A DNA stretch of 64,000 nt from Candidatus Dormiibacterota bacterium (GTDB lineage Bacteria > Chloroflexota > Dormibacteria > Aeolococcales > Aeolococcaceae): positions 192,001 to 256,000 of the forward strand of contig CAVPXI010000004.1 in NCBI GenBank assembly GCA_963709585.1, written 5' to 3'. This document shows positions 3,641 to 21,013 of the stretch, piece after piece. The notes beneath the pieces are model-generated. The model saw only the letters and a list, made by a program, of their open reading frames with translations. It made no database searches and was not told the origin of the DNA. How positions within the stretch are numbered: position 1 is the first letter of the stretch; each line of letters begins with the position of its first letter. The translations under genes were made by a program, and so were the position numbers.

Positions 3641-4813
3641 ATGACCGCGTCCGAGCTACGCCGCGTGCTGCGTGTGGGCGACATTGCCGCCGTCACCCTG
3701 AAACCTGGCGCATCGTGGCTCCCGGTTCTCCGCCGCGCCCGCGAGGTGGGCGCGGCGATCCTGCCGATCGACATTCGCCTCTCGAAGCCCGAGCGCGCGG
3801 CGCTGGTCGTCATCGCGCAGCCGACCGTGATCGCCGACGAGGCAGGAATCCGTCGGGCGGACGGGGAGCCGATCGATCCCGAGATCGCCCTTGTCATCGC
3901 CACGTCTGGAACCTCGGGTCAGGCACGGCTGGCTGAACTCCCCGCGGTCGCGGTGGAGGCGGCGGTGGTGGCCTCGGCCACGGCCATCGACGCCCGCGCC
4001 GAGGACCGGTGGCTCTCCTGCCTGCCGCCGGCGCACATCGGCGGACTGCTCGTTCTCGAGCGCCATCTACTCCTCGGGGCGCCGATCACGTTCCGGCGCC
4101 GCCTCACACGCTCGGTCGTGGCTCGGCTCGGCGACGCGCGTTTCACGTCGCTGGTGCCCACGCAGCTCGCCCGCCTGCTCGACGTCGATGCCGACCTCGC
4201 CCGCTTCCGGGCGATCCTCGTCGGCGGATCGGGGGTGGATGCCGAGCTCACGACCAGGGCGGCGAAGGCCGGTCTGCGCGTGGTGCCGACCTACGGGATG
4301 ACCGAGACCTGCGGCGGGGTCGTGTACGCGGGCCGCCCGCTTGCCGGCGTGGAGGTGCGCGCCGCGGGCTGGGGCGAGCTGCTCGTGCGCGGGCCGACGC
4401 TCATGCGCGGCTACCGGCTCGATCCCGCCGCTTCGCTCGCCGCCTTCGAACCGGGTGGGTGGTTGCGCACAGGAGACGCCGGCGAGGTCGATACCGATGG
4501 GACGGTCCGCGTGCACGGGCGGATCGCGGACGTGATCGTCAGTGGCGGCGAGAAGATCTGGCCGGCGGAGGTCGAGGCGGCGCTGATGAGCCATCCGGAC
4601 GTTGCGGGTGCCCTGGTCTCGGCGAGCCCCGACCGCGAATGGGGCCAGCGGGTGGTGGTGCGCGTCGTCCCGCGACGCCGCTCGAACCCACCCACGCTCG
4701 ACTCGCTGCGCGATCACGCAGCGCAGACGGTTGCCCGGCACAAGCTGCCCCGCGAGTTGATCATCGTCGAGCGCCTCGACCGCACCGCACTGGGGAAGAT
4801 TCGCCGCCGTTGA
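3641..4813 (+). CDS. menE: o-succinylbenzoate-CoA ligase (AMP-binding)
   Basis: TSGTSG, SLVPTQL, TYGMTET, TGD, SGGEKI; divergent from menB. Confidence 0.88.
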
Positions 4814-12031: not shown

Positions 12032-12064
12032 TTGGCTGAAGCCGGATCGAGGCATACTCGAACC

Positions 12065-12544
12065 ATGGAAACAGCGACGTTCGGCGCAGGATGCTTCTGG
12101 GGTGTGGAATCGGTCTTTGAACAGGTCGACGGGGTCACCGCGACCAAGGTCGGGTACACGGGTGGCTTCACCCAGGCGCCCACGTATGAGGACGTGTGCT
12201 CACACCGCACCGGGCACGCCGAGGCGGTCGAGATCACCTTCGACCCCGCTCGGGTGAGCTACGACACGCTGCTCGACATCTTCTGGATGAACCACGACCC
12301 GACGCAGTTGAACCGCCAGGGTCCGGATGTCGGTGACAGCTACCGAACGGCGATCTTCTTTCACTCACCGGAGCAGGAGGCCGCCGCGATTGCGTCGAAG
12401 AAGCGGCTCGAGGAGTCGGGCCAGTACCGCCGCCCGATCGTCACGGAGATCGTTCCCGCGGCGCGGTTCTGGGACGCCGAGGAGTACCACCAGAAGTATT
12501 TTTCCCGGCGCGGTATCGCCGCGACCTGCAACATCCCAGCCTAG
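12065..12544 (+). CDS. msrA: Peptide-methionine (S)-S-oxide reductase
   Basis: [25 protein letters not shown]. Confidence 0.97.
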
Positions 12545-14586
12545 CGCACGGTTCCGTCGCGGAGCACCGCCAGCACGGATTCCCCGTAGCGGTCGAGCTT
12601 CGCCGGACCCACCCCCGGGATGCCGGCCAGGGCCCCGGCGGACGTCGGACGGCGCTCGGCCATCTCGGCGAGGGTCCGGTCGTGAAAGACCACGTAGGGC
12701 GGGACCTCCGCCTGCCGCGCAATCTCGAGCCTCCAGGTCCGCAACGCTTCGAAGCGCGCCGCGACCTCCGGCGTCATCGCGAGCGCGGGTGCGCCCCCGG
12801 TCGCGCGAGTGCGCCGGCCGCTAGCACGCTTGGGTTGCGACGCACGCACGTCGACATCAAGGGCTTCCTCGCCGCGTAGCACCGACGTCCCCCGAGGCGT
12901 GATCCTCAGCGTCGGCTTCTCGCCGTGGCCGCGGCTGATACAGCCCAGCTCGACGAGTCGTTCGAGCAGCTCGCGGATTGCCTCCAGGTCCCAACCGCGG
13001 AGTGCGCCGAACCATCGGAGCTCGGCGACCCAGGGACGCGACGCCGTCCACGCGTCGACGGAGCCGCGCAGGATCGAGGCGATTCGAACACCACCGAGGT
13101 GGTCATCGAACCGCGCCACGCTGGCGAGCGCCGCATTCACATCGGCGGGGTCGACGGCCGCGTACGGCGCGCGGTTGCTGTCGAGACAGTTGTCGCACGC
13201 CATGCACCTCCGAGCGACGCCCTGCTCGCCGAAATAGTCGGCGATGCGCGCATGCCGGCAGGTGCGTGAGCCCGCGTACTCCATGACCTGGTTCACCCGC
13301 GCGTAAGCGTTGGCCTTGAGCAGCGCCTGCTCTTCGAAGTCGACGGGCGCTCCGGTCAGGCGTCGAATCCCGCCGTCCGGCTGGATCACCTCGGCGCGGC
13401 GCAACAGGTCGAGCGCGGCTCGTGCTCCGTTGATCGGGATGCCCCGCGCCTGCCAGTCGTCGATCGCGTCGCTCCCCTCACGGAGCAATTCGCGGTACAC
13501 GGCGCGGACCGCGTCGCGCTCGGGGTAGGCGTGCTCGATGAAGAACTCCTGCAGCTGGCGGTCGGCGGGGCTGTAGAGCAGGATGCACTCGGATGGTTCG
13601 CCATCACGGCCGGCGCGACCGGCCTGCTGGTAGTACTCCTCGAGGCTTCCGGGGAAGTCGTGATGGATCACCCGGCGGATGTCCGGGAAGTCGACGCCCA
13701 TGCCGAACGCCGAGGTGGCGACGATCGCCTGCAGACGGCCCGCGGCGAAGCCCTCGTGCACGAGCTGTCGCGCGTCCCCGTCGACGGCGCCGTGATACGA
13801 GGCGACCGCGACCCCGGCACCGGCGAGCAGCTCGGTGATCTCGTCGGTGGATCGCCTGCTCCCGCAGTACACGAGCGCGCGGCCCCTGCCCGGTTGCACG
13901 AGGCCCAACAGGGCGTCGCGCTTGTCGGCCGCGCCGCGGCAGCGGATGACCGACATGGTCAGGTTGTCGCGGACGAACCCGGTGATCCGCTCGACGGCTG
14001 CTCGCAGGCCGAGACTTGCCGCGATGTCCTCGCGGACCCGCGGGGTCGCCGTCGCCGTGAAGGCGCCGACCGGCGGGCGGCCGCACGCCGCGATGGCGTC
14101 GCCAAGGCGTCGGTAATCGGGGCGGAAGTCGTGGCCCCAGCTCGAGATGCAGTGCGCCTCGTCGACGACGAAGCGATCGACGGACAACCTGCCGAGGTTG
14201 TCGAGGAAGCCGGGGGCGCCGAGACGCTCCGGGGCGAGGTACAGGAATCGAAGCTCGCCGTCCGCCGCGGCTCGCAGTGACTCGGCCCGGTTTGCCGCGC
14301 TGACCTGACTGTGCACGCAGGCGGCGGGAACACCGAGCGCGTTGAGGCGCGCGACCTGGTCGACCATCAGTGCGATCAGCGGCGACACCACGAGGGTGAG
14401 ACCGCCGCCGGCGATTCCCGGGACCCAGTAGGCGATGCTCTTCCCGGAGCCGGTCGGCGCCACGAAGAGCACGTCCGCGCGCGCCTCCGATGCGGCGACG
14501 ACGTCGGCCTGCCCGGGTCGGAACTCCGCGAATCCGAAGGTCTGCTCGAGGACCGCGCGAGCCCGAGGCGAGGGCTCGAGCGGCAT
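12541..14586 (-). CDS. recQ: RecQ-family DNA helicase with RQC and HRDC domains
   Basis: [68 protein letters not shown]. Confidence 0.93.
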
Positions 14587-14988
14587 CAGCTCGCCGACTT
14601 CTCCAGCTTGAGCGCGCAGGAGTTCATGCAGTAGCGCTGGCCGGTGGGCGCCGGGCCGTCGGGGAAGACATGTCCGAGGTGCCCGCCGCACTTGGCGCAG
14701 CGGATCTCGGTGCGCGGGATGAGCATGCTCCAGTCCCGATGCTCCTCGACCGCCGTCTCATTCAGCGGGGCAAAGAAGCTCGGCCAGCCGGTCCCCGAGT
14801 TCGAACTTGGTGTCGGAGCCGAACAGCTCGGCGCCGCAGCCCGCGCACGTGTACACGCCCTTGTCATCCACGTGCACGTACTGCCCCGTGAATGGGCGCT
14901 CGGTGCTCGCCTTGCGGAGCACGGAGTACTGCTCAGGCGTCAGGCGCTGACGCCACTCGTCGTCGGTGAGGGTGATCTTCTCGTCCAT
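14586..14988 (-). CDS. msrB: Peptide-methionine (R)-S-oxide reductase (+1 frameshift at about 14800)
   Basis: [21 protein letters not shown]; then GTGWPSF, GHLGHVF, RYCMNS. Removing 1 nt gives 133 aa. Confidence 0.93.
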
Positions 14989-14993
14989 GATGC

Positions 14994-15992
14994 TCAGGTT
15001 TTACCCCGTTTCGCGGGACTCGACGCATACAGTGCCGCGGCCGCGGCATGAGTCTCCGCCATGTGCCGACGCAGCGACGCCGGTTCGAGCACCTCGACGT
15101 TGGCGCCCCACCGCAGCAACCATGGGCGCATCTCAACCTCGCCGGCAACGTCGAGCCGCACCTCGATCCCGCCGCCGGGCAGGTCTGTCCGTCTGGCACG
15201 GGCGGGCCATGGGGTCTCATCGACCCACTGACGCGCCTCGGGTGAGAAACGCAGCACCACCCGGTCGGCGCCGGCGCCCTGCCAGATGGCCCACGAGGCA
15301 CCGAGCACTATGTCGATGTCGAAGTCGGCCGGGACCGAGAACGTTGTCGGCAGCAGGCGCGCCGACCGGATACGGTCGAGCCGGAACGAGCGAACCTCGC
15401 GGGACACGGAGTCGCGCGCGAAGACGTAGATGTGCCGCCCCTCTGCGGTCGGCTGGATGAAAAACGGACGAAGATCGCGACGGGTCTCATTGCCCTTGGC
15501 GTCGACGTAGCGAACCTCGATCTCGCGGTGGCTGACGAAGCCGTCGATCACGGTGCGTTCGACCTTGAGCCGCTCGGTGTCAGCCGGCTGGCGCTCGGCG
15601 GCGATAAGGGTCCGGCGCAGGTATTCGCTCACGACCGGCACGCTCAACGCGCGCGAGAGGTGGGCGAGCGCGCCGACCAGCGCGGGATCCTGCTCGGTGC
15701 GCACCTGCTGGAGCAGGCGCACGGCCACAAGGAGCAACGTGGCCTGGTAGTGGTCGAGCTGCAACGGGGGCAGCAGGCTGCCCTTGCCGATCCGCCAGCG
15801 ACCTCCGGTCTCCTCGACGTCGATGCCGGCGCTGTCGCGAAGGGTGGCGACGTAGCGTTGCACCGTGCGCGGGTTGACCTCGAGCTCGTCGGCGAGTTGA
15901 TTGGTGGTCAGCCCGACCTCGGTTTCACAGAGGCGTGCGAACAGCTTGATGACGCGGAGTTGCTTTTCTCCCTTTTCGTACACGCGTGGCAC
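14994..15992 (-). CDS. HTH-WYL-WCX transcriptional regulator
   Basis: w[18 protein letters not shown]; WYL domain R..P...[16 protein letters not shown]; WCX domain [14 protein letters not shown]. Confidence 0.92.
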
Positions 15993-16001
15993 ATGACGAG
16001 C

Positions 16002-16531
16002 CTAGCGATTTGCCGGGGCCGCGGACTCGATGTCGAGTGTGTAGCTGAGCAGCACCATCCCGTCCGGTCGTGCCTGCGGGCTGGTGGGCGCGAAACCAAG
16101 GCTTGCATACAGCTGCTGCGCCGCCGTCATGACCGGGTCGGTGTCCAACGTCATGACCTGCTTGCCGTGGGCCCTCGCCGCATCGATGCACGCCAACATG
16201 AGGCGGCGAGCAATCCCCCGTCCACGATGGTCCGGGCTCACCCCGAGCATACGGACATGCGCCTCGTCTGGCGCCAGGGGGTCGGCCACCCCGGGGCTGA
16301 TTCGCGAGTTCGAGCTCCAGGGTTACCGATCCCGCGATGACGCCATTTTCCACCGCCACCAACACGATGGCCCGGCCGGCCCGGCTTCCCACGTCGGCGA
16401 TTCTCGCCAGGTACGCCTCCCAGCCGGGCGAGTCAGGCGTCAGAAACTCGCGGAAGGCGCGCACGGTCGAACTCGCCTGCGGCCTCGTACTCGAACTCGC
16501 GGATCGGGCGGATCTCGATCTCGTCAGGCAC
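16002..16531 (-). CDS. GNAT N-acetyltransferase (two +1 frameshifts, about 16310 and 16470)
   Basis: IEIRPIREFEYEAAGE / TVRAF...VLVAVENG / RMLGVSPDHRGRGIAR...AQQLYASLGF. Removing 2 nt gives 175 aa. Confidence 0.85.
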
Positions 16532-16538
16532 TGAGAAA

Positions 16539-16579
16539 ACCCTACGCGACAGACATCTGTCGCCGGAGCCGCTCATGGT
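16539..16579. promoter_or_regulatory. Divergent promoter with palindromic operator GCGACAGA-CA-TCTGTCGC (16546-16563), candidate WYL-regulator site
   Basis: Perfect 8-bp arms. Rightward: TGTCGC-N10-CATGGT, then ATG 6 nt later. Leftward: -10 TAGGGT (16544-16539), 7 nt before the GNAT GTG. Confidence 0.7.
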
Positions 16580-16585
16580 TGCGGC

Positions 16586-16837
16586 ATGGATACGGACACA
16601 GCGGCGCCGATCGACACCGCGGCCGCCGGCGACGGGCCCTACCTTCGGCGCGCCCAGGAGTTGGTGGCCGCGAGAGGGGATCTCTTCCTGGCCGGGCCGG
16701 GACGCTCGGTGCGGCTCGCCGCTGTCAGCGGCCCGCCGCGGGACCGGGCGGCCTCGAAGCTCCGGCAGGCGAGCCGGCAGCTCACGCTGCCCATGCCGCG
16801 CCAACCCACGCGCCGGCGGCCCAGGATGGTGCGCTGA
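16586..16837 (+). CDS. Hypothetical 83-aa protein with QLTLPM (beta-clamp-motif-like)
   Basis: Fills the gap between the promoter and the nuclease gene; TGATG stop/start overlap at 16835-16839. Confidence 0.65.
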   Translation: MDTDTAAPIDTAAAGDGPYLRRAQELVAARGDLFLAGPGRSVRLAAVSGPPRDRAASKLRQASRQLTLPMPRQPTRRRPRMVR

Positions 16838-19800
16838 TGCGATACCTCGAGGACGGCTGTCCCGTGTACACGGCCACGGACCTCTGCGACTACCTCGCGT
16901 GCGGGCACCTGGTCGCGCTCAAGCGGCGCATCGCTGCCGGCGAGCCGATCAAGCATGACCGGACCGCGCTCAGCGAGGTGCTCGCGAATCTGGGTGCGGA
17001 GCACGAGCAGCGCTATCTCGACGCGCTTCGGGCACGGGGCTTGACCGTCAAGGCGTTCGAGGACGACCGCGACCGCTACGCGAGTACCGCCGGCGAACTC
17101 CGCGCTCTTGAGGCCGAGACCGTCGAGGCGATGGCTCAGGGTTTCGAGGTCATCTATCAGCCCACCTTCTTCGACGGGCGCTGGATGGGTCGCGCCGACT
17201 TCCTGCTTCGAGTTCGAGACGCCGAGCGCCCGGTGGCCGTGGGCGTACGAGGCGGCTGACGCGAAGCTCGCCCGCCGCGTGCGTTCTGAGGCGATCCTCC
17301 AGCTCTGTGAGTACTCGGCGCACCTGGAGCGGCTCCAGGGGACGCCGCCCGCGCTGATGCAGCTGATTCTCGGTGACGGCGTCGAGCATGCATATCGGAT
17401 CGATGAGTTCTCCGCGTACCACGCAGCCGTGAAGCGGGACTTCGAGGTGGCGATGCTCGCCGAGCTCGGCAGCACGTACCCCGACCCGGTCGAGCACTGC
17501 AACACGTGTGGATTCGCCGCGCGCTGTGCAGCTCAGCGAAAACAGGACGATCATCTTTCCCAGGTCGCGCGCATGCGGTCGGGTCAGGTGCTCGCGCTGA
17601 AATCCGTCGGCATCGCCACCATGACCGCGCTCGCTCAGGTTTCCGCCGACGTCGAGCCTCCGGCACGTATGAGCCCGACCTCCTTCGGCGACCTGCGCGC
17701 CCAGGCGGCGTTGCAGCACACGGGTCCTCACGCTGACGGGGCGCCGCGACACGAGTTGCTCGATGCATGGGAGGTCGGACATGGTCTGTGTGCGCTTCCG
17801 AGTCCGTCACCAGGCGATCTCTTCTTCGACATGGAGGGCGACGGCCTCGCACGCGACGTGCCGCTGGAGTACCTCTTCGGTGCGGTCGACATGCACGGCG
17901 TGTATCGAGCGTGGTGGGGCCACGACGACGCCGGCGAGCGACGTGCGTTCGAGGGGTTCGTCGACCACGCCATCGCGCAACTCGAACGTTATCCGGACAT
18001 GCACATTTACCACTACGCCGCGTACGAGAAGACCGCACTCCGCCGGCTGATGAGCCGCCACGGCACCCGCGAGGAGGAGGTCGACCGCCTGCTCCGCAAC
18101 GAGGTGCTCGTCGACCTCTATCGCGTGGTGCGACAGGGAGTGCGGCTGTCCACCAACTCGTACTCGCTGAAGAAGGTCGAGCGGCTGTACATGCCGGCAC
18201 GCGAGGAGTCGATCGCGGACGCAGCGGGAAGCATGGTGATGTACGAGCGCTGGCTGAACAGCAGCCGCGATGGGGGCGATGGGGACGCCGCGCTCCTCGA
18301 CGAGATCGCGATCTACAACGAGCGCGACTGCATCTCGACCGCGCAATTGCGCGACTGGCTCGAGGCGCGTCGCATCGAGGAGGAGAGGCTTCGCGGCGCG
18401 CCCATCGAGCGTCCGGCGGTCGTCGAGCGCGACGTCAGTGAGGCCCTCGGCGCAAAGATCGTCGCGACCCAGGAGGTCGCGGCCGCACTGGTCGACAATG
18501 CCCCCCCGGACCCGGACCTGCAGACGGACGCCGAACGAGCGAGGTGGTTGCTGGCGCCGCTTCTGTCGTATCACCGGCGCGAGAACAAGGTCAATTGGTG
18601 GCGTCACTACGACCAGCTGGCGATGAGCCCGGAGGAGCTCGAGCGCGACACGTACGCGCTCGGTCCGCTCGAGATGATCGGCGCGCATGAGGAGGGCCGT
18701 CGCACCATCGAGCGGTACCGGTTCGAACCCCAGGAACACCGCGTCGGCCTCGGCGACATTCCGCTCGATCCTGAAACCGACGCGCGCTGGGCACCCGTCG
18801 CCGGGGAGGTGACCGAGCTCGAACTCGGCACGAGGAACAATCACACTGTCGCGCACTCCCGGTCAGGCAGAGCGCGGAGCCGTCCGCTTTCTGATCCAGA
18901 CGACACCGTTCGCGACCGATGCGCAGGAGGCGGCGCTCCTCGACCTCGGCCGCTGGGTCGTCGCCAACGGCCCGGATGCCGGCGGGCCCAATCGCGCCGG
19001 ACGCGACCTGCTGCTTCGGCTGCCGCCGCGCCTGCGTGACGGCACCGATTGCGTGCTCCGGGGCGCAGGGGAGACGGCATCCGAGGCTGCGATACGACTG
19101 ATCCTCGGCCTGCGGCGTGGATGCCTCCCGGTCCAGGGTCCGCCCGGAGCCGGGAAAACGCACATGGCCGCGCTGGCGGCACTCCGGCTCATTGCGAGGG
19201 GGCGCACACCGGTTGGTGTCACCGCCGTCACGCACAACGCGATTCGCACCCTGCTGGCGAAGATCGAGGAGCTGGCCCCCTCGCTTGGCATGACCGTGCG
19301 CATGCAACACCGCAAAGGGGACGGAACCGGTTCCGCCGCGATCCAGGTTGTCCGCAGCAACGAGATGGTCGAGGCGGCGGTCGTGGACGGCACCGTCGAC
19401 GTCGTCGGCGGAACCTCGTGGCTCTTCTCTCGCCCGGAGTTCGAGGCGGGTTTCGACACGCTCATCGTCGACGAGGCCGGCCAGATGTCACTCGCGGACA
19501 CGCTCGCGGTCTCGCGCGCCGCCCGCAATCTCGTCCTGGTGGGCGATCCGCGACAGCTCGCCCAACCGCTCCAGGGGAGCCACCCACCGGGCGTCGGGGT
19601 TTCCGCGCTCGACCATCTGCTCGGTGACGACGTCACCATCGCTCCCGACCGCGGCGTGCTGCTCGACCTCACCTGGCGAATGCATCCCGACGTGAGTGCT
19701 TTCGTATCGCGTTCCTTCTACGAGGGACGGCTGGGCTCGGAACCGCGATGCGCGAGCCAGGCGGTCGTCATCGACGGTGCCGCGATCACGGGCCTGCGGA

Positions 19801-20303
19801 CGGTGTTTGTGGAGCATCAAGGCGATCGCGTTCGGTCCGATGCGGAGGCGGGGCGTGTCGGCGACGTCATCGACCAGCTCATCCGATCCGCGTGGCGGGA
19901 CGACCGAGGCCATATGCGTGCGCTGTCGCTCGACGACATCGTAGTCGTCGCACCGTACAACGCGCAGGTCGCGTGTCTTCTCGAGTCGCTGCCGCCGGGT
20001 GCGAGAGTGGGCACCGTCGATCGCTTCCAGGGGCAGGAAGCCGCGGTCAGCATCTTCTCGATGGCGACGTCGAGCGTCGAAGACCTGCCGCGCAATCTCG
20101 AATTCCTGTTCAGCCTCAACCGCCTCAACGTGGCAGTGTCGCGAGCGCGCGGGCTCTCGATCCTGGTCTGCTCGCCCGAACTGCTCCGTGCTCGTTGCCG
20201 TACGCCGGAGCAGATGCAACTCGTCAATGCGCTATGCCGCTTTGTGGAGATGGCAGAGCCGTGGATCACCGCGCCGGTGGGCGCGATCATGCTGCCGGTA
20301 TGA
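16837..20303 (+). CDS. TM0106-family RecB/Cas4-like nuclease + RNase H-like domain + SF1 (Upf1/Dna2-like) helicase; two +1 frameshifts (about 17213 and 18822)
   Basis: YLAC, RADFL..EAADAK..QLCEY, CNTC..C; FFDMEG, YHYAAYE, YSLKKVE, YNERDC; QGPPGAGKT, DEAGQ, GDPRQL, APYNAQ, TVDRFQGQE, RLNVAVSRA. About 1154 aa after correction. Confidence 0.9.
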
Positions 20304-21013
20304 CCGCCGATTCGCTCAAAACCCGCCTGCTGCAAACGCTCGATGCGGCCTCCACTCGAGAGGCCGCGCTGCTTGCGCTGTGTGACGATTCCCCGCCGTC
20401 CGAGGCCGGTCGCTGGACCGCGAAGGACAACGTCGCGCACCTCAGCAGCTGGCGTGAGCATGCGACCCGTACCCTCGATGCGGTGCGCCTCGGGAAACCA
20501 GTCGAAGGACCAGCCAATGAGAGCGACCTTGACGGGCGCAACGCGGAGATCTACGAGGCTCATCGCGATAACTCGGCGGCCACGGTCCGTGCTGCCGCAA
20601 GCGACAGTTACGCGGCGCTGATCGAGGCGGTGAAGGCGTGCACCGACGAGGATCTGATTCGTGACCGCCCCGGTGACGGTGGCCCGGTGTGGCGTGTCAT
20701 CCCCGGCAACGGTCATGGTCACGTCGCCCAGCACCTCTCGTACTGGGCTGCCGAGCACGACGATCAAGCAGGCGCGGAGGACGCCGCGAGATGGGCATAT
20801 TCGCTTGACACCGATCTCTTCCCCGACAACCAGGCAATCGCCGACTACAACTACGGCTGTTTCTACGCGCGGAACGGACGTGCTGACGAGGCGCTGCCGC
20901 TGCTGGGAGCCGCCCTCCGGTCGCGTCCTGAACTGCGCAGCTTCGCGCTCGACGATGCGGACATCGAGCCCATCCGCGACGATCCCCGCGTGCAGAGCCT
21001 CCTCGGCCCCTGA
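20300..21013 (+). CDS. DinB/ClbS-DfsB-like four-helix-bundle protein with C-terminal TPR-like region
   Basis: WTAKDNVAHL and GHGHVAQHL His motifs; YNYGCFYARNG..EAL..L..A...D.D TPR-type end; ATGA overlap with the helicase gene. Confidence 0.75.
   Translation: MTADSLKTRLLQTLDAASTREAALLALCDDSPPSEAGRWTAKDNVAHLSSWREHATRTLDAVRLGKPVEGPANESDLDGRNAEIYEAHRDNSAATVRAAASDSYAALIEAVKACTDEDLIRDRPGDGGPVWRVIPGNGHGHVAQHLSYWAAEHDDQAGAEDAARWAYSLDTDLFPDNQAIADYNYGCFYARNGRADEALPLLGAALRSRPELRSFALDDADIEPIRDDPRVQSLLGP

Follow-up and report, generated by a model that had tools for sequence, protein, structure and literature searches.

A stretch of 64,000 nucleotides (nt) from the genome of a Candidatus Dormiibacterota bacterium (contig CAVPXI010000004.1, positions 192,001 to 256,000; G000:C4:192001-256000 in our numbering of genomes and contigs; "the window" in the following) contains a locus which is likely to be the home of a LexA-independent DNA-damage regulator of the Dormibacteria, similar to DriD and PafBC. 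Two operons of tightly coupled genes diverge there from a short spacer with an 18-base pair (bp) palindrome. The minus-strand operon encodes a GNAT acetyltransferase, a transcription factor composed of a winged helix-turn-helix (wHTH), a WYL and a WCX domain, the methionine-R-sulfoxide reductase MsrB and the helicase RecQ, whereas the plus-strand operon encodes a small protein designated orf83, a TM0106-family enzyme that unites nuclease, exonuclease and superfamily 1 (SF1) helicase domains, and a DinB-fold protein with a C-terminal tetratricopeptide repeat (TPR). An earlier note on this DNA had proposed a WYL regulator acting from the spacer on both operons and a role in DNA damage or defence; the comparative evidence summarized below supports the regulator with its conserved operator as well as the DNA-damage reading, and speaks against defence. 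The finding is real and better than chance. The window genome (G000) comprises 3.52 Mb in 24 contigs and is 88.8% complete, and its public relatives are metagenome-assembled genomes of Candidatus Dormibacterota/Dormibacteria.

Operator and promoter geometry

The sequence GCGACA-N6-TGTCGC has a single match in the window, compared to 0.03 expected from shuffles. The earlier note had made its interpretation depend on conservation of the palindrome in relatives, and this conservation was found: the core CGCGACA-N6-TGTCG is invariant in 21 of 21 loci (the window and 20 further loci of the same genus), and the centre and the flanks vary. On the plus side, TGTCG is followed by 11 nt, a weak -10 hexamer (CATGGT), 6 nt and the ATG of orf83, the form NANNNT of the hexamer being present in all aligned loci. 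If the ATG is taken as +1, the palindrome extends from -40 to -23 and its promoter-proximal half-site TGTCGC from -28 to -23. Since the ATG follows the -10 hexamer after only 6 nt, the orf83 mRNA is probably leaderless. On the minus side, a good -10 hexamer (TAGGGT) is located 2 nt from the palindrome and 7 nt from the GTG start codon of the GNAT gene, and TAnnGT is retained in 19 of the 21 aligned loci. A search of positions 16350-16750 gave no sigma-70-type -35/-10 pair, the plus-strand promoter being devoid of a -35 element, and the search of the spacer region gave no terminator-like site.

The two loci that have lost TAnnGT (L046 and L049) carry an insertion of about 1.5 kb between the GNAT gene and the palindrome, which remains with orf83. 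The insertion (L046:10260-11750, and likewise in L049) contains a gene for a multi-pass membrane protein, oriented like the regulator's operon.

Conservation of the locus

Among 36 other genomes of the genus, 34 encode the TM0106-helicase, mostly as a single open frame of 1110-1317 amino acids (aa), whereas none of 24 genomes from the neighbouring family f2 does. Linkage in related genomes, on which the earlier note had also made its case depend, was found as well, with the order RecQ-MsrB-WYL-GNAT / TM0106 maintained in all 20 genus loci fetched; the DinB-TPR gene is present in 19 of them and was not found in L043. Most genus loci are flanked by msrA and an ABC binding-protein gene, and the G+C content is flat across the locus (0.68-0.69), with no anomaly in base composition. 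Because of the synteny in 20 of 20 loci and the flat G+C content, the locus behaves as core genome and not as an island.

The WYL regulator and its association with the operator

The N-terminal winged HTH, the WYL domain and the C-terminal WCX domain of the regulator all score above the Pfam cut-offs. The protein aligns to DriD (8tp8_A) and PafC (7p5x_AX) with E values of about 1e-7, and matches further WYL proteins of solved structure. In the HMMER alignment with 8tp8_A, the chain numbering of which is the native one plus 20, R42 and R46 are placed opposite Arg37 and Arg41 of DriD, at low overall identity; these two arginines of the DriD recognition helix contact the G bases in CGxC half-sites. 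Of the nine residues in contact with single-stranded DNA (ssDNA), Y168, R178, R189, Y192, R204 and R207 are identical to DriD and three are exchanged (W206 to F, Y240 to W and S172 to K), so that ssDNA sensing may be predicted for the regulator.

WYL orthologues with about 58% identity are found in other genera of the same GTDB family, e.g. in Ca. Amunia (G179), and 13 of the 15 loci of this clade have the same palindrome near the WYL gene. In these 13 loci, TGTCG-N11-(G/C/T)ANNNT-N6/7-ATG points toward an open reading frame (ORF) of 65-76 aa, which in the annotated loci is followed by the gene of the helicase Lhr (Lhr-type loci); in the opposite direction from the site come DUF1345-WYL-(M20)-MsrB and, further on, RecQ. 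The site abuts the WYL gene in genera g7 and g9, too. Adjacency of WYL gene and palindrome is claimed for the genus of the window (g1, 21/21), the 58%-identity clade, g7 and g9, and not for the whole class.

The abundance of the motif follows the regulator across the class: of 101 genomes, 52 encode a WYL homologue (E<=1e-40) and together contain 233 sites (control 13), whereas 34 sites (control 10) were counted in the other 49. At least three sites occur in 3 of these 49 genomes, two of which are only 79-82% complete. The 52 include four unpublished genomes (G233, G331, G398 and G415), and when these are excluded 220 sites are counted in 48 genomes (control 11). In terms of kinship, the contrast is one between families f1, f3 and f5, which have both regulator and motif, and families f2 and f4, which have neither.

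The window genome contains only two WYL genes, which are unlinked and 135 kb apart. The second one (L002, G000:C4:341386-345117) encodes a protein of 330 aa with about 30% identity and is located next to a gene for a HAD-like hydrolase. An inverted repeat AGGAC-N7-GTCCT upstream of it (1420-1465) was read by eye, whereas the automated repeat search gave none; this gene probably encodes a separate regulator with another site.

A predicted regulon beyond the locus

The earlier note had regarded the locus as a self-contained module. This does not hold, since every genome has several further promoters with the operator/-10 design, the occurrence of which goes along with that of the WYL homologue throughout the class. 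Counts of the bare palindrome were dropped as proof, and a test of the spacing between operator and -10 was used instead. In the window genome, CGACA (with at most one mismatch)-N6-TGTCG-N11-NANNNT gave 23 matches, compared to 2-12 at nine other spacers (7-10 and 12-16 nt). The exact operator/-10 pattern occurs at 4, 7, 9 and 8 sites in G019, G030, G016 and G179, respectively, and the reversed control pattern at 0, 1, 0 and 0. A start codon is found 6-9 nt past the -10 hexamer in 20 of 28 distinct site orientations.

Recurring candidate targets across genomes are the orf83 operon, a 424-aa protein, three small proteins without family, and a 959-aa protein composed of a UvrD helicase and a PD-(D/E)XK nuclease (UvrD+PDDEXK), the latter in G000, G016, G019 and G030. 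The promoter of the UvrD+PDDEXK gene has the -10 hexamer CAGAAT, which together with the site recurs in G016, G019, G030 and other genomes of the genus; in the window genome (L108, G000:C21:95725-103725, site at 4001) it is divergent from a gene for a Sir2-family deacetylase. A DUF222-HNH gene adjoins one site. In G179 (genus g10), the pattern precedes recA (with a 219-nt leader), RecJ, an ADP-ribosylglycohydrolase gene and the operon of small ORF and Lhr. The window genome has two more palindromes (4001 and 5939 of L107, G000:C7:310737-320700), at a distance of 1.9 kb from each other and in a region nearly devoid of ORFs with high G+C content at third codon positions; a fragment similar to nucleoside 2-deoxyribosyltransferase adjoins one of them. 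This region is perhaps foreign or decayed and subject to the same control.

A separate LexA/SOS system coexists in the window genome, because lexA, recA and lhr carry GAAC-N4-GTTC-like boxes just upstream (Table 1) and not the palindrome. Lhr thus seems to be LexA-controlled in this genome and WYL-controlled in the Lhr-type genera.

Comparison with known WYL systems

The earlier note had likened the regulator to PafBC, DriD and SiwR, and promoter geometry, operator and alignment back this resemblance. DriD of Caulobacter crescentus, a homodimeric and SOS-independent activator, binds the palindrome ATACGAC(X)7GTCGTAT via Arg37 and Arg41 (PMC10853764); its target promoters lack a -35 element, and the site overlaps that position with a constant spacing to the -10 (PMC13004042). 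Common to both systems are a WYL factor encoded by a single gene, a CGAC/GTCG palindrome that overlaps the -35 position at a fixed distance from the -10 with no -35, a site at the regulator's own gene, the Arg pair and most ssDNA-contact residues, and a regulon that includes a small effector protein as well as recA and recJ, the latter two in genus g10 among the Dormibacteria. A regulon of DNA-damage genes is found in the Dormibacteria as far as sequence can tell, with UvrD+PDDEXK, the TM0106 helicase, Lhr, recA and RecJ downstream of the pattern. The local regulator differs from DriD in sequence (about 25% identity, E 1e-7) and lineage (Dormibacteria), the centres of its sites are G+C-rich instead of A+T-rich, and its targets are mostly leaderless. 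The DriD-regulon effector DidA acts on the divisome protein FtsN (PMC10853764), whereas the local small effector has a clamp-type motif.

PafBC of mycobacteria is a heterodimer which acts by sigma adaptation; its motif is tGTCgg(N10)tA(N3)T, the 5' element of which covers -23 to -28 (PMC8635444). The spacing is matched exactly by the local TGTCGC-N10-CATGGT. Lhr is a further common feature, being PafBC-induced in mycobacteria (PMC9841417) and a putative target in the Lhr-type Dormibacteria loci. PafB and PafC are paralogous WYL proteins, encoded side by side or fused and linked to the Pup-proteasome gene pafA. The locus, in contrast, has a single WYL gene instead of a pafB-pafC pair, and its fully palindromic site suggests that the factor binds DNA as a homodimer without a partner. 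Identity with PafBC was rejected because the WYL genes are not paired and no PafA match was obtained in the 88.8%-complete genome.

SiwR of Mycobacterium smegmatis is a homodimer whose binding site, an imperfect palindrome of 19 bp, precedes the -10 of a divergent DinB operon (PMC10693628). By description, a presumed homodimer, a palindrome of about 19 bp upstream of the -10 and a divergent operon with a member of the DinB superfamily are shared; the targets described for SiwR are the adjacent DinB genes only, whereas the local operon has its DinB-like gene in third and last position and belongs to a wider regulon. The statement of the earlier note that this combination has not been described stands for the literature searched, which contained no paper combining Dormibacter and WYL; one preprint, on YprA helicases, mentions Chloroflexota, a WYL domain and DNA damage once each.

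Gene content and coordinates

Annotation with Pfam and NCBIfam and inspection of the sequence recovered every element of the layout that the earlier note had proposed, i.e. the two divergent gene strings, the 54-nt spacer between the GNAT and orf83 start codons, the palindrome within it, and the tight coupling, the gene junctions being gaps of 5-9 nt or stop/start overlaps (Table 1). RecQ scores 356 bits against TIGR00614 (cut-off 220); its start was placed by orthologue alignments, which begin at residue 37-38 of the longest ORF (extending to 14691). An intact GNAT orthologue of 175 aa is encoded in L038. An msrA gene (12032-12544, plus strand) is convergent to recQ and MsrB is encoded within the WYL operon, the adjacency of WYL and MsrB being maintained in other genera as well; this placement of MsrA and MsrB hints at an oxidative-stress side of the response.

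Table 1 Features of the divergent WYL locus and of the LexA-type boxes. Positions refer to the window unless a genome region is given
Feature	Position	Strand	Evidence or remark
RecQ helicase	12541-14580	-	DEAD, Helicase_C, RecQ_Zn_bind, RQC, HRDC; ATG at about 14580; last gene of the regulator's operon
MsrB (methionine-R-sulfoxide reductase)	14586-14988	-	SelR in two pieces/frames; single frame in relatives
wHTH-WYL-WCX transcription factor	14994-15992	-	HTH_11 1.3e-7, WYL 2.9e-10, WCX 1.8e-18
GNAT acetyltransferase	16002-16531	-	Acetyltransf_1 1.5e-14; GTG start at 16531; first gene of the regulator's operon
-10 hexamer TAGGGT, minus-strand operon	16539-16544	-	Sequence
Operator palindrome GCGACAGA-CA-TCTGTCGC	16546-16563	.	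8-bp arms, 2-bp non-symmetric centre
Weak -10 hexamer CATGGT, plus-strand operon	16574-16579	+	Sequence, spacing control
orf83 small protein	16586-16837	+	Alignment, codon usage, profile search, model
TM0106-family RecB/Cas4-like nuclease, RNase H-like exonuclease and SF1 (AAA_11/AAA_12) helicase	16837-20303	+	About 1153 aa when intact
DinB-fold protein (DUF1706/DinB_2) with C-terminal TPR_END	20297-21013	+	Start overlaps helicase stop
Frame break in MsrB	~14800
Frame breaks in GNAT	~16309, ~16471
Frame breaks in TM0106 enzyme	~17213, ~18822
GAAC-N4-GTTC-like box of lhr, GAACATCCGTTC	L116 (G000:C4:281262-284873)
GAAC-N4-GTTC-like box of recA, GTACAAATGTTC	L115 (G000:C23:252641-256426)
GAAC-N4-GTTC-like box of lexA, GAACATCCGTTT	L114 (G000:C11:84477-88094)

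Frame breaks in the assembly

The coding sequences of the window change frame at five sites, two in the GNAT gene, one in the MsrB gene and two in the helicase gene. In comparison with the nearest relatives (L055 with 94% and L004 with 96% nucleotide identity), each break is one surplus base in the context GAGT[T]CGA. GAGTCGA occurs 133 times and GAGTTCGA 118 times per Mb in the whole window genome, compared to 301 and 50 times per Mb in loci totalling 283 kb from further assemblies of this genus, which corresponds to ratios of GAGTTCGA to GAGTCGA of 0.89 and 0.16, respectively. Short-read contigs from three DNA runs omit exactly one letter at each break and show no further indel in 14700-18900; run X1, which covers three of the five sites and is otherwise identical, is possibly from the source sample and then independent in sequencing chemistry only, and runs X2 and X3 cover all five. 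Because these contigs omit one letter at each site, the five frame breaks are one-base insertions of the assembly, and the genes are intact in the population. Gene decay was ruled out by the comparison with relatives, the motif frequencies and the short-read contigs, and the "repaired operon" for which the earlier note had called needs no repair. The DnaN gene of the window genome is split by a break of the same kind. Apparently, bases are systematically miscalled at a single motif, which contains GANTC as well as TCGA and is possibly methylated, and the error probably also depresses the estimate of completeness.

The small protein orf83

The small ORFs of the TM0106-type and the Lhr-type loci can be aligned with each other. 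Among 26 sequences, M1, Y19, R22, Q64, L65 and P68 are invariant, and QLxLP is present in 25, the remaining one having QLAFP. Because the invariant residues are encoded by two to five synonymous codons, the protein itself is under selection. The N-terminal helix differs between the two subfamilies and the tail is constant; orf83 orthologues carry QLSLPL, QLTLPL or QLALPL in the disordered tail. An AlphaFold model of orf83 (pLDDT 63) contains one helix (residues 18-34), with the motif in a coil. A profile search of 1.84 billion representatives yielded 39 clusters at E<=1e-3, nearly all of 65-90 aa, and (R/G)Q[LM]xLP[LI] is present in each of the 19 distant representatives that were fetched. The family of orf83 is real and narrow. 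Pfam, NCBIfam and PADLOC contain no family for orf83, and the ESM Atlas gave no usable match. Within 301 genomes of the phylum, the profile found convincing matches (E<=1e-14) in four only, namely G000, G035, G179 and the unpublished G233; 18 weaker matches (E 2e-4 to 9e-3) were taken as noise, and two of these that were fetched (G283 and G143) have no WYL gene or Lhr nearby.

Proteins binding to the beta sliding clamp share the general consensus QL[SD]LF or QLxLxL. The QLxLP(L) element of orf83 looks like such a motif and is likewise of the exposed QLxLxL type, with the difference that orf83 has no other known domain. QLSLPL itself, which several orthologues contain letter for letter, is a strong beta-clamp-binding hexapeptide (PMC4478557). 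It is conceivable, albeit doubtful, that orf83 is the founding member of a family of small leaderless proteins, induced by damage, which dock on the beta clamp via their C-terminal QLxLPL and work together with the helicase encoded behind them (TM0106 here, Lhr elsewhere), either as an adaptor bringing the helicase to clamps left at stalled forks or gaps, or by denying polymerase access to the clamp in the manner of a checkpoint. If this were true, the TM0106 enzyme would obtain its first defined cellular context, i.e. the clamp-coupled processing of damaged replication intermediates under WYL/ssDNA control.

The TM0106 nuclease-helicase

The middle piece of the enzyme scores 224.4 bits against TIGR03491 (cut-off 97.45) and RNase_H_2 is matched with 2.2e-26, which places the enzyme in the TM0106 family; the N-terminal piece alone is weak against TIGR03491 (0.0036) because the assembly error splits the enzyme. 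Several motifs are recognizable, namely GRADF, DAK, QLCEY (QxxxY) and CNTCGFAARC (CxxCx5C) in the nuclease, FFDMEGD (DxE) and YNERD in the exonuclease, and GPPGAGKT and VDEAGQ (Walker A and B) as well as VSRAR in the helicase. The family is large (>6000 members; 6238 homologues at E<=1e-10 among 8000 scored). The literature searched contained no paper on it, matches to "TM0106" being an unrelated corrosion standard. Like the long form of TIGR03491, the enzyme is fused to an SF1 helicase with a predicted Dna2-like logic, whereas the damage-type switch and the coupled clamp-motif ORF seen here are not part of the family description. One homologue (P0117, 1290 aa) has a C-terminal GNAT domain, which is not specifically similar to the local GNAT protein (E 0.31); a link between GNAT and the enzyme by way of this protein was rejected.

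A search with PADLOC gave no system match. In the helicase domain, matches were obtained to DpdJ models and to Mokosh MkoA (C-terminal part, 2e-44); the MkoA match is limited to residues 285-477 of the C-terminal piece and model positions 891-1093, the architecture specific to Mokosh being absent. Apart from the generic helicase core, only a CRISPR-associated WYL model was matched, and orf83, the nuclease part and the DinB-TPR protein match nothing.

Alternative interpretations

The WYL protein might be a repressor of the BrxR/CapW type, which holds both operons off and is released by ssDNA, with the same regulon and the opposite sign on the plus side. CapW and BrxR are indeed wHTH-WYL-WCX repressors that bind palindromes, CapW senses ssDNA (PMC11662680, PMC9186387), and the minus-side site abuts the -10 hexamer, a position typical of repressors. 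We nevertheless regard this possibility as rather unlikely: the plus promoters combine a weak -10, no -35 and an operator at a fixed distance of 11 nt across unrelated genes and genera, which is the signature of the activators PafBC and DriD, and a repressor would need no fixed phasing with the -10. Defence repressors of the BrxR/CapW type are located directly upstream of a recognised defence system such as BREX or CBASS, whereas PADLOC gave no system proteins among the neighbours of the local regulator. That WYL regulators often flank defence systems (PMC9122601) and that the helicase resembles MkoA and DpdJ could also mean that the plus-strand operon is an inducible anti-phage system with the nuclease-helicase as effector and accessory proteins under the WYL regulator, an option left open by the earlier note. 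It appears improbable in view of the core-genome setting, all 20 genus loci being syntenic, with msrA/ABC-transporter genes on one flank and a GntR/ABC pair on the other, and the G+C content being flat; in addition, the PADLOC matches are confined to the generic helicase core, the co-regulated genes are repair genes (UvrD-nuclease, recA, RecJ and Lhr), and another genus has Lhr, a repair helicase, in the same position. We consider it just as improbable that the palindrome is bound by another factor or is purely structural (hairpin or terminator) with the WYL gene nearby by accident. At the Lhr-type loci the palindrome does sit in a longer G+C-rich inverted repeat which could fold as a hairpin. 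The adjacency of WYL gene and site in g1, the 58%-identity clade, g7 and g9, the motif abundance that follows the WYL homologue across the class, and the agreement of the half-site CGAC with the sequence that DriD recognizes through the conserved Arg pair stand against such a coincidence, as does the lack of a terminator-like site in the region searched.

Several points weigh against the interpretation as a DriD/PafBC-like activator of a damage response. Activation and repression are not separable by sequence alone, and the identity to solved WYL factors is low. The half-sites of DriD are separated by N7 and the local ones by N8 (CGAC-N8-GTCG), a difference of 1 bp. The bare palindrome CGACA-N6-TGTCG is not enriched in the window genome (16 matches compared to 2-16 at other spacings), and its share in non-coding DNA (8 of 16, compared to 36 of 125 for other spacings) is only suggestive, having been determined with a crude coding mask that covers 67% of the genome. 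Three loci of families f3 and f5 lack a perfect palindrome next to the WYL homologue, which is 33-35% identical there; in one of these loci, the closest palindrome lies at a distance of 1.5 kb. The co-occurrence of regulator and motif rests on few events, since related genomes are not independent. In a single run of an RNA library (X18), contigs fall on parts of MsrB, WYL and GNAT and on 17732-17886 and none on orf83, which says nothing on transcription or 5' ends.

Proposed mode of action and significance

Taken as a DriD/PafBC-like damage regulator, the wHTH-WYL-WCX protein, presumably as homodimer, would bind the palindrome CGCGACA-N6-TGTCG. ssDNA from damaged DNA would fill the WYL pocket, whereupon the bound regulator would recruit or adapt RNA polymerase, and the leaderless transcript of orf83, the TM0106 nuclease-helicase and the DinB-TPR protein would be made. 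Because the site abuts the good -10 hexamer TAGGGT, occupancy of the operator on the minus side would probably autoregulate the leaderless GNAT-WYL-MsrB-RecQ operon, most simply by repression. The same operator/-10 design heads a small predicted regulon elsewhere in the genome. The triple enzyme is expected to resect and unwind damaged DNA in a Dna2-like manner, and orf83 might engage the beta sliding clamp through its QLxLPL tail; the orf83 operon, the flagship of the regulon, is best read as linking a micro-protein with a clamp motif to a triple enzyme that is uncharacterised and resembles Dna2 in its logic.

The WYL activators PafBC and DriD are known alternatives to LexA for switching on repair and have been described in Actinobacteria, Alphaproteobacteria and Moraxellaceae. 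The same logic is now seen in the Dormibacteria, an uncultured soil lineage, in the form of a readable promoter code of palindrome, N11, weak -10 and leaderless start, by which the regulon becomes predictable from sequence alone. Two uncharacterised players, the very widespread TM0106 nuclease-exonuclease-helicase and a tiny protein conserved only in a helix and a textbook clamp-binding motif, are thereby placed under what appears to be damage-type control.

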